Shown piece after piece: positions 28,764 through 37,779 of a DNA stretch of 64,000 nt. Location: the NCBI GenBank assembly GCA_963705205.1, contig CAVPJG010000006.1, positions 298,125 to 362,124 of the forward strand. Direction: 5' to 3'. The notes under the pieces are model-generated. The model was not told the origin of the DNA and searched no databases. It worked only from the letters and a program-made list of their open reading frames with translations. Position numbers and translations under genes: made by a program. The first letter of the stretch is position 1; every line of letters starts with the position of its first letter. The DNA comes from an uncultured Thermoleophilia bacterium (GTDB lineage Bacteria; Actinomycetota; Thermoleophilia; UBA2241).

Positions 28764-29882
28764 TCAGGCGCAACGGATCACGCCCCGCGCCCAGAGGCAG
28801 TCGCCGCACGTGGGGTGCGGGTTGCCGAGGCAGTCCTCCTCGTTGGTCTCCGCAAGCTCGCACGCACAGTCGGTGCAGGGCGGGAAGTCGAAGCGACGCA
28901 CCCGGTCGCGGAACGCGACGTACTCCGGCCTTGCCCAGATGCCCGCCAGCGTCTCGTCCGGCAGGCGGCCAGCCTCCCAGCGCACCATCTGCTTCTCGCG
29001 CCCGCGCACGAAGCACGTGTAGGTGTGCAACAGCGGCGGGCAGGGGCTGACGCCGCCGTGCCAAGCCACGGCACAGGCGTCCCCCTCGACGAAGGGGCAG
29101 TGGCTGCGGGTCGCCTCGGGGTCGGCGCCGAAGAAGGAGACCGGCCCGGAGCGGGTGAGCGCCTCGCCGAGCGCCGCGCCGAGCTGCCCGTCCCAGTCGA
29201 ACACGGGCAGCTGCCAGCGCGGCGCCGCCGTCGTCGCCGCGCCGCTCAGCGAGCTCGCCTGGTGGTCGTAGAGCGTCTCGGAGAGCAGGTTTGGCGTGTA
29301 CGCAAGCACGTTGCTGACGATGATGAAGGTCGCGCCGAGCTGTGCGGCCAGGCGGCTGAGACCGGGAAGCTCGGTGACGTTGGAGCGCATGGCCACGAAC
29401 TCGACGCCGATGCGCGTGCCCGGGCCGTAGTTGGCGCCCCGGCGGTCGTGCAACCGGCGGACGTTCTCGACGACGCGCTCCAGCGAGGCCCCGGAGCGCA
29501 CGCGGCCGAAGGCCTCCGCGGAGGCGCCGTCGATACTGACGACGAGCTGGTCCAGACCGGCCTCCAGGAGTCCGGCCGCCATCTCGTCGTCCAGCAGCAG
29601 CGCGTTGGTGGTGACGTCCGCGCGCAGGCCACGGTCCTTGACCAGCCGTACCATATCGAGGAACCGTGGATGCAGCAGGGGTTCGCCGAGGCCCATGAAG
29701 GCCACACCGCCGGGCTCGCCGGCGGCCGTCCGCGCGAGACCGTCAACGACCGCCTCGAACGCGGCCCACTGCATGAACCCCTGTGGCTCGTCCCAGGAGT
29801 GGCGCACGCACGTCCTGCAGTCCAGGTTGCAGGCGTTCGTCGGCTCGACGTAGACCTTGTGGGGACCCTCGATCGTCGTCAT
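28764..29882 (-). CDS. Radical SAM / SPASM-domain enzyme (substrate unknown)
   Basis: CNLDCRTC (CX3CX2C) at residues about 18-25. The Cys-rich C-terminus CPFVEGDAC ... CPPLL ... CTDCAC ... CGDCLWARGVIRC is typical of SPASM auxiliary clusters. Confidence 0.85.
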   Translation of the reverse strand: MTTIEGPHKVYVEPTNACNLDCRTCVRHSWDEPQGFMQWAAFEAVVDGLARTAAGEPGGVAFMGLGEPLLHPRFLDMVRLVKDRGLRADVTTNALLLDDEMAAGLLEAGLDQLVVSIDGASAEAFGRVRSGASLERVVENVRRLHDRRGANYGPGTRIGVEFVAMRSNVTELPGLSRLAAQLGATFIIVSNVLAYTPNLLSETLYDHQASSLSGAATTAAPRWQLPVFDWDGQLGAALGEALTRSGPVSFFGADPEATRSHCPFVEGDACAVAWHGGVSPCPPLLHTYTCFVRGREKQMVRWEAGRLPDETLAGIWARPEYVAFRDRVRRFDFPPCTDCACELAETNEEDCLGNPHPTCGDCLWARGVIRCA

Positions 29883-29892
29883 GCCGGCGGGC

Positions 29893-30123
29893 TCAGGCCT
29901 TCCCCTTCGCCGCCCGATGCTCGTCGAGCGTCGGGAAGGTCAGGGCTCCTGCCTCGCACAGACCGGCGCAGTGCGAACAGCCCTCGATGCAGGATGCCTT
30001 CGCATCGACGCGCACATGTTCGTCGACCATCGCGTAGACGCCCTGTTGGCAGAACTCGAGGCACGCCCTGCAGTCGGTGCAGGCGGCCTCGTCGATGGTC
30101 GGGCCCCAGACGAATGCAGCCAT
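29893..30123 (-). CDS. Small 2x[4Fe-4S]-type ferredoxin
   Basis: 76 aa with CTDCRACLEFC and CIEGCSHCAGLC cluster motifs. It ends 10 nt upstream of the radical SAM gene. Confidence 0.8.
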   Translation of the reverse strand: MAAFVWGPTIDEAACTDCRACLEFCQQGVYAMVDEHVRVDAKASCIEGCSHCAGLCEAGALTFPTLDEHRAAKGKA

Positions 30124-30136
30124 GCCTGCCTCCCTT

Positions 30137-30757
30137 TCAGCAGCAGCAACCGGAGCCCGCGGCGGGCTTCTTGTTGGCGAAGTAGCGCACCAGGTTCTCG
30201 GGCAGCTCGGCGAGCGGTTCGGGGGTGACGGGCGGCATCTCGTCCAGCCTCAGCATGGCGTCCATGAGCTTCTCGACAAGGAACGGCAGCGGAGCGGCGC
30301 TGTAGACCTGGCCGCGGTAGTGCCACTCGCGGCAGTCGACGCTGACGTCGTTGTCGGTCAGGTCGCCGCAGGATTCGCACTCCGACTCGCGGATGTCCTG
30401 GTCGATATCGCGTCCGTTGATGCGGATAGTCGGTGAGGAGAGGAGCGCGCGGGCCTTCGCCTCCTCCGCCGTCTGTACGACGATCTCGCGATAGGTGAGC
30501 CCGATGCCCTGGGCCTCGGCCGCAGGGGCGACGAGCTCGATCGCGTCACGCATCTGCTCTCCCGTAGGCACGCAGCGCGCGCAGCTCTCGAGGTCGATGA
30601 CGAGCAGCTCGATGTTCAGCCGGCGCGGCGTCGTCCCGCCGGCGGGCGGACCGGGAACGGCCTGAGCGGTGGAGGCGCCGCCACAACATGGTGATGCGGT
30701 CGACTGGTCGCCGCAGCAGGACGAGGCGGGACGGGCGGTGGTCTGGGGGTCGCTCAT
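30137..30757 (-). CDS. DUF2703-like thioredoxin-fold protein with vicinal-Cys tails
   Basis: Core LVIDLESCARCVPTGE ... SPTIRINGRDI ... CESCG ... CREWHYRG. N-terminal SSCCGDQSTASPCCGG and C-terminal GSGCCC. Confidence 0.7.
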   Translation of the reverse strand: MSDPQTTARPASSCCGDQSTASPCCGGASTAQAVPGPPAGGTTPRRLNIELLVIDLESCARCVPTGEQMRDAIELVAPAAEAQGIGLTYREIVVQTAEEAKARALLSSPTIRINGRDIDQDIRESECESCGDLTDNDVSVDCREWHYRGQVYSAAPLPFLVEKLMDAMLRLDEMPPVTPEPLAELPENLVRYFANKKPAAGSGCCC

Positions 30758-30817
30758 GCTGGTTCAAGCTCCTTGATCGAGGTGGACCTTCGGTTGTGTC
30801 GATCTGAGAACGCCGGG

Positions 30818-36638: not shown

Positions 36639-36676
36639 GATGCCGGGAGCTTATCACAAGAAATCCTGATTTGGTC

Positions 36677-36704
36677 TTGACAGCGACCCGCGGCGCGGTA
36701 GAAT
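36677..36704 (+). promoter_or_regulatory. Near-consensus sigma-70-type promoter for arsM
   Basis: TTGACA (36677-36682), 16-nt spacer, TAGAAT (36699-36704). It lies in a locally AT-enriched 107-bp intergenic region, about 40 nt before the arsM ATG. Confidence 0.55.
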
Positions 36705-36745
36705 CATAGCGAGAAAAATTGATGTGACCCTGCAGAGGAGCCGAG

Positions 36746-37579
36746 ATGAGCGACGAGACCACCGACCTGAAGGCCCAGATCCGCGACCACTACGCGGAGC
36801 GCGCGGTCGCGGCCACGCAGCCCGCGGCGCCTGTGTCCTGCTGCGGCCCCAGCAGCTGCTGCGGCGGGACCCCGGTCGAGGCGCAGGACGAACTCGCCCG
36901 CGGCCTCTACGACCTCAACGAGACCAGCGACCTCCCCGCGGAGGCGGTGCTCGCCAGCCTCGGCTGCGGCAACCCCACGGCGCTCGCCGACCTGCGGACA
37001 GGCGAGGTCGTGCTCGACCTGGGCAGCGGCGGCGGGATCGACGTGCTGCTCTCCGCCCGCCGCGTCGGCCCCACCGGCAAGGCCTACGGGCTCGACATGA
37101 CCGACGAGATGCTCGCCCTGGCGCGCCAGAACCAGCGCAAGGCGGGCGTGACCAACGTCGAGTTCCTCAAGGGTGAGATCGAGGACGTCCCGCTGCCGGA
37201 CGCGTCTGTCGACGTGATCGTCAGCAACTGCGTGATCAGCCTCTCGTTGGACAAGGACAGGGTCCTCGCCGAGGCGTTCAGGGTGCTCAAGCCGGGCGGA
37301 CGGTTCGCCGTCTCCGACATCGTGTTCCAGGGCGACGTGAGTCTCATACCCGACAAGGTGATACGCGACATCGAGGCGTGGTCGGGGTGCGTCGCGGGCG
37401 CGCTGGAGGAGCAGGACTATCTGGACAGGCTGCGGCGCGCGGGCTTCGCGGACGCCTCGATCGAGGTCACGCAGGTGTACGCCGTGGACCGAGAGCTCTG
37501 CGGCGTGGACCTCAGCGACATCCCGGAGGGCGTGCGCGTGGTCAGCGGGTTCGTGCGTGCCGTCAGGCCGGGCGCCTGA
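36746..37579 (+). CDS. arsM: Arsenite S-adenosylmethionine methyltransferase
   Basis: N-terminal [22 protein letters not shown] motif [22 protein letters not shown] and WSGCVAGAL, matching the conserved ArsM cysteines and fold. Confidence 0.9.
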
Positions 37580-37605
37580 CGAGACGCGGAGAGGACGGAG
37601 GAGTC

Positions 37606-37779
37606 ATGGACCGCATCGGGAGCATCGACCACATCGCGGACTCGGCGCGCGAAGAGAGCGTCAGAGCCGAGAGGCTGCGCCACCGGCGCGCGGCGCAGGA
37701 GCGCTGCGTGCGCGCCGGACTCCTGCGCCGCTGCACGCCGTTGCCGCCGGACGGCGGGGGTTGCCGCCGCGGCGCCTGA
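37606..37779 (+). CDS. Small hypothetical protein (57 aa)
   Basis: ATG preceded by a GGAGGAG SD, 26 nt after the arsM stop. GC3-rich codons. No recognisable family. Confidence 0.3.
   Translation: MDRIGSIDHIADSAREESVRAERLRHRRAAQERCVRAGLLRRCTPLPPDGGGCRRGA

Follow-up and report, generated by a model that had tools for sequence, protein, structure and literature searches.

The HgcA and HgcB proteins move a methyl group from a corrinoid onto Hg(II), giving methylmercury. To our knowledge, no physiological role of HgcAB has been established in the years since its genes were discovered in 2013, and it is this role that governs when and where methylmercury is made by microbes. This study was concerned with a 64,000-nucleotide (nt) stretch of contig CAVPJG010000006.1 from a Thermoleophilia bacterium of soil, a stretch referred to as the window, in which an hgcAB pair lies within an arsenic resistance (ars) locus at positions 28764-37779. 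Several described systems are close to this locus. First, McDaniel et al. (2020; PMC7438021) report 17 hgcA-positive Actinobacteria, four of them Thermoleophilia, and show acr3, arsC, arsM and arsR flanking hgcAB (Fig. 6 of that paper). These loci represent the same type of co-localization in the same bacterial class as the window. Secondly, in Pseudodesulfovibrio mercurii ND132 the ArsR2 protein controls hgcAB and the system responds to arsenic and S-adenosylhomocysteine, and that report also remarks on ars co-localization in other genomes (Gionfriddo et al.; bioRxiv 10.1101/2022.10.17.512643; AEM 2023). In addition, 14 of 31 confirmed methylators were found to have an arsR no more than three open reading frames (ORFs) upstream of hgcA (2023; PMC10349881). 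Third, the ars genes of Paraclostridium dentum (arsR-orf1-acr3-arsM plus arsP; PMC12124457) likewise combine a metallophosphoesterase carrying a CxC motif of the essential type with acr3, arsM, arsP, arsR and a gene of the thioredoxin family. However, ars operons of this type in anaerobes have neither hgcAB nor a radical SAM gene (PMC12124457).

The window resembles ND132 in having an ArsR/SmtB-family regulator directly upstream of hgcAB, which in ND132 is co-transcribed and arsenic-responsive. However, arsR2-hgcAB of ND132 does not lie in an ars operon, its ArsR2 has an atypical four-Cys site and ArsM is absent, whereas in the window hgcAB forms the tail of an acr3-arsR(CVC)-ArsE operon with ArsM, ArsP and a Car1-like reductase alongside. 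Beyond the consulted passages of McDaniel et al., the window and its relatives add codon overlaps, four layouts, sister islands that lack hgcAB, a conserved operator candidate and three kinds of companions (Car1-like, DUF2703 and ferredoxin-radical SAM). An earlier account of this DNA, made from its letters and an ORF list (the sequence-only reading), had suggested that the combination was new. This suggestion was not sustained, as the linkage of hgcAB with ars genes, the presence of hgcA in Thermoleophilia and control by ArsR and arsenic were all published between 2020 and 2023. The association is already in the literature, so the arrangement is not a new kind of system. It is a further and unusually tight example of a published association, from which it differs in degree, and it adds weight to the open hgcAB-arsenic question instead of opening a new one. 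The reading preferred here, which we consider probable on the strength of the sequence comparisons described below, is that of an ArsR-governed ars locus with a genuine, co-expressed hgcAB as the last two genes of its acr3 operon.

Coding frames were chosen by third-position G+C content (GC3), because the window has a G+C content (GC) of about 70%, and were then checked against the ORF list. Family names were taken from Pfam and NCBIfam profile searches with curated cut-offs. All eleven genes named in the sequence-only reading were recovered at the positions it had given, and the profile searches bore out every family name (Table 1). Its junctions in the rightward operon were also read again from the DNA and agreed: acr3 and arsR1 overlap in ATGA, a gap of 23 nt separates arsR1 from the TTG start of the thioredoxin gene (with GAAGGAG upstream), the thioredoxin gene overlaps hgcA in ATGA and hgcA overlaps hgcB in GTGA. 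Start/stop overlaps of 4 nt thus flank hgcA on both sides. The claim that the corrinoid pair lies inside an ars operon was upheld, with hgcAB at the distal end of an acr3-arsR-thioredoxin operon, joined by overlapping codons and with the linkage kept in several related species. The end point of 37779 given earlier for the locus proved to be the stop of a 57-amino-acid (aa) ORF that had not been named. This ORF has an orthologue of the same length after arsM in three related contigs (L081-L083; 3759-3932 in L081), three conserved Cys residues and the motif AERLRHRRAA..ERC..GLLRRCTP, and gave no Pfam or NCBIfam match.

Table 1. Positions of the genes and candidate signals of the hgcAB-ars locus and of a distant corrinoid methyltransferase cluster in the window
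Feature	Position	Strand	Basis or remark
Radical SAM/SPASM enzyme, 372 aa	28764-29882	-	Last gene of leftward operon; maturase-like
Small ferredoxin, 76 aa	29893-30123	-	Weak Fer4 matches
DUF2703 thioredoxin-fold protein, 206 aa	30137-30757	-	PF10865, 72 bits
ArsP_1-family permease, 402 aa from internal GTG at 32026	30818-32026	-	PF03773, 258 bits
Metallophosphoesterase domain, 249 aa	32027-32773	-	PF12850/PF00149
Metallophos+ArsP_1 as one 651-aa ORF	30818-32773	-	
Shared divergent promoter/operator region (candidate)	32774-32903		GC and conservation
acr3, 379 aa, first gene of rightward operon	32904-34043	+	TIGR00832
arsR1, 122 aa	34040-34408	+	PF01022, NF033788
Thioredoxin_3 / MTH895/ArsE-family thioredoxin-like protein, 84 aa, CxxC	34432-34686	+	TIGR00412, PF13192
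hgcA, 400 aa	34683-35885	+	NF040863
hgcB, 96 aa	35882-36172	+	NF040864
arsR2, 137 aa, convergent with hgcB and divergent from arsM	36225-36638	-	PF01022, NF033788
arsM promoter, near-consensus sigma-70	36677-36704	+	TTGACA-16-TAGAAT
arsM, 277 aa	36746-37579	+	NF008823, PF13847
57-aa ORF after arsM	37606-37779	+	GC3 frame signal
S-methyl_trans	59369-60274		
B12-binding corrinoid protein	60336-60980	-	
GntR regulator	60977-61789		
B12-binding corrinoid protein	61868-62500		
URO-D/MtaA-like methyltransferase	62479-63840		

The identity of the corrinoid pair carries much of this reading. HgcA is related to the large subunit of the corrinoid iron-sulfur protein (CFeSP; AcsC/CdhE) of the Wood-Ljungdahl pathway, with which it shares a homologous corrinoid-binding Rossmann-like domain. 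However, the CFeSP subunit has N-terminal Fe-S and TIM-barrel parts without counterpart in HgcA, and HgcA has a cap-helix Cys and a C-terminal membrane domain. The hgcA-like gene could accordingly be read as a CFeSP subunit of the acetyl-CoA pathway, or as a non-methylating paralogue of the HgcAB-like fusion type. Its only Pfam match is CdhD (PF03599, 64 bits), and its only matches among PDB sequences are CFeSP large subunits (2h9a, 4djd; residues 99-221, 52 bits); no solved HgcA or HgcB structure was among these PDB matches, in which CFeSP domains alone appear. These matches, however, span only residues 97-222, and the competing profiles decide the matter. The protein scored 402.7 bits on the HgcA equivalog NF040863 (cut-off 275), with residues 72-396 aligned to model positions 1-322 of 325, as opposed to 85 bits on the CFeSP gamma model (CdhE, PRK04165; cut-off 306) and 191 bits on the HgcAB-like fusion model (NF043039; cut-off 285), and hgcA and hgcB are two genes here. 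The assignment was made from these curated hidden Markov model scores rather than from a rooted tree, and because of them the CFeSP and fusion alternatives are considered refuted, with next to no probability left to them.

Residue-level features of HgcA also speak against the CFeSP alternative, as does the adjacent hgcB. The cap-helix motif NVWCAAGK is present in HgcA (GINVWCAAGKGTF), and the aligned CFeSP stretch reads SVLTAWAAGK (GTSVLTAWAAGKF), so that the HgcA Cys stands in place of the Thr-Ala-Trp stretch. Parks in 2013 and Smith in 2015 are said to have described the cap helix as N(V/I)WCA(A/G)GK, with a strictly conserved Cys that is Cys93 in ND132. The C-terminal membrane domain was seen as hydrophobic segments in residues 282-396 (Kyte-Doolittle), inside the alignment to the HgcA model. 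The N-terminal tail (residues 1-71; positions 34683-34895) contains three Cys pairs. The idea that such a tail is special to ars-embedded copies was rejected, as CCG/CCPP-rich tails occur in many Desulfobacterota and other HgcA proteins, and tblastn matches to HgcA begin at query residues 1-6 in other phyla with such tails. In the window, the DUF2703 protein, ArsM and ArsR2 likewise have CC motifs similar to those of the tail. A 2026 review (PMC13188914) lists HgcA as a selenoprotein of the 'CU' type.

HgcB scored 113.5 bits on the equivalog NF040864 (cut-off 99) and has two CX2CX2CX3C motifs (CNGCGLCVAVCP and CLECGACALNC). The GVGC cysteine is present, and the C-terminus reads SCDCG, with CxC instead of CC. 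A GVGC...E(P)xCDC tail is common to HgcB from many phyla, including many Thermoleophilia and Desulfobacterota. In two metagenome-assembled genomes (MAGs) of Desulfobacteraceae (L056, approximately 11136-11340; L075, approximately 3838-4030), hgcB has an in-frame TGA at GVG[C] with the conserved sequence continuing beyond it, which matches the published GVGU selenocysteine form. The pair that the sequence-only reading had called hgcA-like and hgcB-like is a true HgcA and HgcB, since both proteins exceed their equivalog cut-offs and the CFeSP score is far below its own. By every available sequence test the window pair is a true hgcAB, and mercury methylation activity is predicted for it.

The anatomy of related loci was compared in 80 hgcA loci from species-representative genomes (L001-L080) and in further contigs obtained by exact protein look-up (L081-L088), with homologues of every island protein placed in these loci by tblastn. 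In the Thermoleophilia/Actinomycetota relatives, whose HgcA is 66-77% identical to that of the window, hgcAB follows arsR in an ars cluster, in four layouts. The first (window, L002, L003) has a divergent phosphoesterase(-ArsP) and acr3-arsR-trx-hgcA-hgcB, where trx is the thioredoxin gene, and L003 also contains the radical SAM, ferredoxin and DUF2703 genes. The second (L004, L007) has a divergent phosphoesterase and acr3-arsR-hgcA-hgcB without trx. The third (L081-L084) has ferredoxin-acr3-phosphoesterase on one strand and arsR-hgcA-hgcB-arsM-orf57 on the other, and occupies the same slot as the window, between SepF and DUF456/DUF2927. In the fourth (L001), acr3 is divergent from arsR2-hgcA-hgcB, with the arsR2-type gene directly before hgcA. 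Judged from these gene orders, the linkage between hgcAB and arsR has survived repeated rearrangement. In addition, a version of the window island minus hgcAB is found in two contigs (L086, L088), where it consists of trx-arsR-acr3, a divergent phosphoesterase with ArsP, arsM divergent from arsR2, the ferredoxin gene and the radical SAM gene. Homology of their DNA with the window is lost at 34670-34688, which is the stop codon of the thioredoxin gene. Because of these islands and this end point, hgcAB is best described as a discrete module appended to a lineage-specific ars locus. By this comparison it is an add-on to a conserved locus and was putatively placed under ArsR control.

The signals from which the two divergent operons would be read were also compared. 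The intergenic region had been described as AT-enriched, and it does have 57.7% GC with a core of 43%, compared with 69.9% for the window. Within it, an AT-rich core of about 45 nt (GTTTATATCAAGCTACCTTGACCATAAACGnATGTCAATGTA, 32795-32845) is nearly invariant in the window, L002, L003, L085 and L086, genomes whose proteins have diverged by 10-30%. The region contains a promoter-like site on each strand, TTGACC-17-TACCCT on the plus strand (TAnnCT across genomes) and TTGACA-17-TAGCTT on the minus strand, and a palindrome, TTGAC-N11-GTCAA, where the two sites overlap. From its conservation, the palindrome is a candidate ArsR operator overlapping two candidate promoters. The near-consensus promoter reported earlier for arsM, which is divergent from arsR2, stood up well: it has 11 of 12 consensus matches and is alone of its kind in 10 kb, where 0.4 such sites are expected. 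No cobalamin, SAM or other riboswitch was matched at the Rfam gathering score in the whole window.

Acr3 scored 457.8 bits on the equivalog TIGR00832 (cut-off 282.8), the thioredoxin-like protein 99.4 bits on TIGR00412 (cut-off 62) and 94.6 bits on PF13192, and ArsM 326.1 bits on NF008823 (cut-off 263) and 114 bits on PF13847. The As(III)-binding Cys motifs of ArsM are GCG, NCV and GC[IV]AG, as in CmArsM, and those found in the window protein are LGCGNP, SNCVIS and SGCVAGA. ArsR1 (PF01022, 55 bits; NF033788, 81 bits, cut-off 55) has the alpha-3 CVC motif (ERCVCEM), and ArsR2 (PF01022, 37 bits; NF033788, 75.9 bits) has CVC and two CC pairs; the third R773-type Cys is missing from both. In the R773 ArsR itself, two Cys residues suffice for As(III) binding according to the ND132 report (bioRxiv 10.1101/2022.10.17.512643). 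The ArsP candidate was identified by its PF03773 match and its ars operon context, with sub-threshold NCBIfam matches to the SaoE and SO_0444 efflux families. The DUF2703 protein has a CxxC motif and tails rich in Cys pairs (SSCCG, PCCGG, GSGCCC), and it scored 45 bits on NF049942, the 'DF family (seleno)protein' model, under the cut-off of 70. A DUF2703 gene within an ars cluster is induced by As(V) in Rhodococcus aetherivorans BCP1 (PMC6514093).

The phosphoesterase has GDCGC directly past GNYD, and G[DE]CGC, which includes a CxC, is invariant in 13 ars-linked homologues, among them one from Coriobacteriia that is 45% identical. Car1 of Rufibacter tibetensis is a metallophosphoesterase of an ars operon and an arsenate reductase that needs Cys74 and Cys76, as it is cited in PMC12124457, and Car1-like genes occur in ars operons of arsenic-methylating anaerobes (PMC12124457). 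The window phosphoesterase is a candidate arsenate reductase of the Car1 type, its CxC being likened to Car1 by the published description. The sequence-only reading had named a fusion of this protein with ArsP. The two form one ORF in the window alone and are separate genes in L085, L086 and L088. When the junction in L085 (2060-2150) was compared with the window (32026-32060, minus strand), one extra nucleotide was found in the window, upstream of the GTGA overlap of L085, which joins the two frames. A conserved fusion architecture is ruled out by the three two-gene loci and this indel, and the single ORF may be a recent real fusion or an error of sequencing or assembly.

Under the preferred reading of an ArsR-governed locus, these parts would work as follows. 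ArsR1, with its classical alpha-3 CVC, would sit on the TTGAC-N11-GTCAA palindrome overlapping two face-to-face promoters, and As(III) or a related thiophilic species would free it and turn both operons on. From the leftward operon, the Car1-type metallophosphoesterase would reduce As(V), and the ArsP permease would export trivalent, probably methylated, arsenicals. The rightward operon would be read as one arsenic-responsive transcript from acr3 to hgcB; Acr3 would export As(III), and ArsR1, the ArsE-type thioredoxin and HgcAB would be encoded after it. The separate arsR2/arsM unit would provide methylation of As(III) dependent on S-adenosylmethionine (SAM). HgcA, as a membrane-anchored, Cys-on corrinoid protein, would with the HgcB ferredoxin pass the methyl group of its corrinoid to a soft metal or metalloid that is bound to thiol. 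The organism is a putative mercury methylator, because the demonstrated reaction of the HgcA/HgcB family is that of Hg(II) to methylmercury, and its hgcAB expression would be governed by arsenic.

Several points weigh against this reading. First, co-transcription and ArsR control are deduced from gene overlaps and synteny. Secondly, a scan for consensus promoters did not call the two sites in 32774-32903, which fell below its threshold, and for this reason the promoter and operator assignment is drawn from conservation. Third, ArsR1 holds only two of the three R773-type cysteines, so that its inducer could be another soft metal. Fourth, mercury methylation has been shown for no actinobacterial HgcAB (PMC7438021). 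Fifth, the authors' summary for ND132 states that deletion of hgcAB brought no significant loss of arsenic resistance (bioRxiv 10.1101/2022.10.17.512643). In addition, two loci with related hgcAB (L005, L006) had no ars gene detected by tblastn in their flanks. Lastly, acr3 lies within the flanks of 10 of the 80 hgcAB loci, an approximately tenfold enrichment that speaks for the reading (P ~1e-8 at an assumed background of 1% per window); however, these 80 loci are those most similar to the window HgcA, so that the figure is not an unbiased survey.

The same data bear on the alternative that hgcAB stands beside ars genes by chance or by soft-metal hitch-hiking, has its own transcription signals and serves mercury methylation only. 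Closely related hgcAB pairs without detectable ars neighbours (L005 and L006) would fit this alternative, as would the presence or absence of hgcAB in otherwise identical islands and the patchy HgcAB phylogeny, for which horizontal transfer is suspected (PMC7438021). However, chance does not readily account for the 4-nt overlaps on both sides of hgcA, for an arsR linkage kept through four gene orders at 66-77% protein identity or for the enrichment of acr3 near hgcAB, and control of hgcAB by ArsR and arsenic has been shown experimentally in another phylum, in ND132. A codirectional arsR lies at most 600 nt upstream of hgcA in 15 of the 80 loci, a count that is likewise an indication from a biased set. 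We consider the chance alternative improbable and retain the reading of hgcAB as a co-expressed part of the ars locus. Few natural loci make as clean a case as this one that the expression of hgcAB can be tied to an arsenic regulon, because of the codon overlaps with acr3-arsR-ArsE, the CVC-type ArsR, the adjoining arsM and arsP and the sister islands minus hgcAB. For the Thermoleophilia of soil, peat and permafrost, it marks putative methylators whose activity may track exposure to arsenic rather than to mercury; soils and permafrost are among the source habitats of L002-L007 and L081-L084.

A different question is which substrate HgcAB serves here. Arsenic could be the native one: methyl-corrinoid would then methylate thiol-bound As(III) by a SAM-independent, non-oxidative route to trivalent methylarsenic (MAs(III)), to be exported by ArsP, with mercury methylation as a side reaction. 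In essence, this is the two-route (SAM and corrinoid) hypothesis of the sequence-only reading, and it has already been raised in the literature. It draws on the codon overlaps that couple hgcAB to acr3-arsR-ArsE, on the single codirectional string that hgcAB forms with arsM in L081-L084, on an arsR and ars-cluster linkage that outlasts four rearrangements and on a putative MAs(III) permease driven from the same intergenic region. In addition, ars neighbours were found in independent contexts in Coriobacteriia (L023), Bacillota (L049), Syntrophorhabdus (L052), Planctomycetes (L059) and Bacteroidales (L070, L077). The ND132 deletion data are equivocal, as the abstract describes a wild type with lower As(V) sensitivity than the strain deleted for hgcAB (bioRxiv 10.1101/2022.10.17.512643) and the summary cited above counts against a role in resistance. 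Further points against an arsenic substrate are that ArsM is already present, so that a second methylase is not obviously needed, that 68 of the 80 hgcAB loci have none of acr3, arsM, arsP or the phosphoesterase within about 10 kb, and that the searched literature offered no biochemical support for methylation of arsenic by HgcAB. On this balance, an arsenic substrate is regarded as possible but rather unlikely. The same doubt applies to the wider proposition that HgcAB of this Thermoleophilia lineage is a corrinoid-dependent, ArsR-switched arsenic methyltransferase working beside ArsM, with export by ArsP and mercury methylation as a by-product. If it were true, methylmercury formation, a reaction that yields a toxin of worldwide importance, would be an accidental by-product of a pathway of arsenic detoxification or arsenic warfare. 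The islands with and without hgcAB and the arsR-hgcAB-arsM string of the sister lineage offer a ready comparative case for asking whether the methylation of mercury branched off from arsenic biology.

The ferredoxin and radical SAM/SPASM pair of the leftward operon is a side lead. The sequence-only reading had placed a radical SAM module in a metalloid cluster; its link to the ars island stands, and a tie to hgcAB does not. The enzyme scored 67 bits on PF04055 and 37 bits on the SPASM model PF13186. Its nearest NCBIfam models, both below cut-off, were TIGR04317 (280 bits, cut-off 380) and TIGR04311 (247 bits, cut-off 400), a maturase of a tungsten-cofactor oxidoreductase and a putative metalloenzyme maturase of Geobacter, respectively. 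These have the same Radical_SAM and SPASM architecture; however, the window gene and its relatives differ from them in having a small 8-Cys ferredoxin partner, in lying in ars islands and in the absence of an adjoining tungsten enzyme. The gene occurs in the ars islands of L003, L085, L086, L087 and L088 besides the window, with or without hgcAB. Since islands without hgcAB carry it too, it is part of the arsenic locus and does not belong with hgcAB. The ferredoxin has eight Cys residues, arranged as CxxCxxCxxxC and CxxxCxxCxxxC, all conserved in the alignment. It precedes the radical SAM gene in four of five related islands, directly upstream in L085 (4009-5368 for the pair, compared with 28764-30123 in the window), L086 (7688-9224) and L088 (8741-10173), and is missing beside the radical SAM gene of L087 (8001-9134). 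The small ferredoxin also occurs in the ars cluster of L082/L084, which has no radical SAM gene, and one more distant radical SAM homologue had no clear ars context. The ferredoxin probably supplies the radical SAM enzyme with electrons. No description of a SPASM radical SAM enzyme in ars operons was found in the searched literature, and the ars-linked pair appears to be undescribed. It may be an anaerobic organoarsenical enzyme of an undescribed kind.

The host genome had been called actinobacterial-looking, and it was placed in the class Thermoleophilia by two lines of evidence. An exact-sequence look-up of the window HgcA gave no record. More than 7,900 database proteins match HgcA, of which the nearest named ones are 'HgcA [Thermoleophilia bacterium]' at 65-98% identity, and a Thermoleophilia MAG contig (GCA_036277455.1, L085) is collinear with window positions 21449-34187 at 88-91% DNA identity, after which the contig ends. 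The earlier term 'island' is a loose one. The reading of the locus as a mobile element was rejected for four reasons: GC is 0.694 compared with 0.699 in the surroundings, the SepF...DUF456 chromosomal slot is fixed (the same in the window, L082/L084 and L085), no integrase or transposase was found among the Pfam-scanned genes and no tRNA flanks the locus, the only one lying 13 kb away.

Outside the locus, several features of the window were recorded. With the corrinoid-dependent methyltransferase cluster at 59369-63840 (Table 1), the organism is shown to employ methyl-transfer chemistry based on cobamides elsewhere as well. The class Thermoleophilia is often regarded as aerobic; an 816-aa multihaem c-type cytochrome with c7/c3/c552 and MtrC-like domains (16521-18971, minus strand) hints at an anaerobic or metal-respiring physiology. 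A second, unrelated radical SAM gene lies at 8178-9329 (minus strand), a DAO+GCV_T gene (dimethylglycine/sarcosine dehydrogenase-like, folate-binding) at 21662-24160 (plus strand) and a sigma factor of the extracytoplasmic function type just past DUF456 at 38650-39348 (plus strand). Lastly, several ORFs in 53100-59400 are without a Pfam match, and the 1-kb bin at 58001-59000 has 59% GC, compared with about 70% elsewhere.

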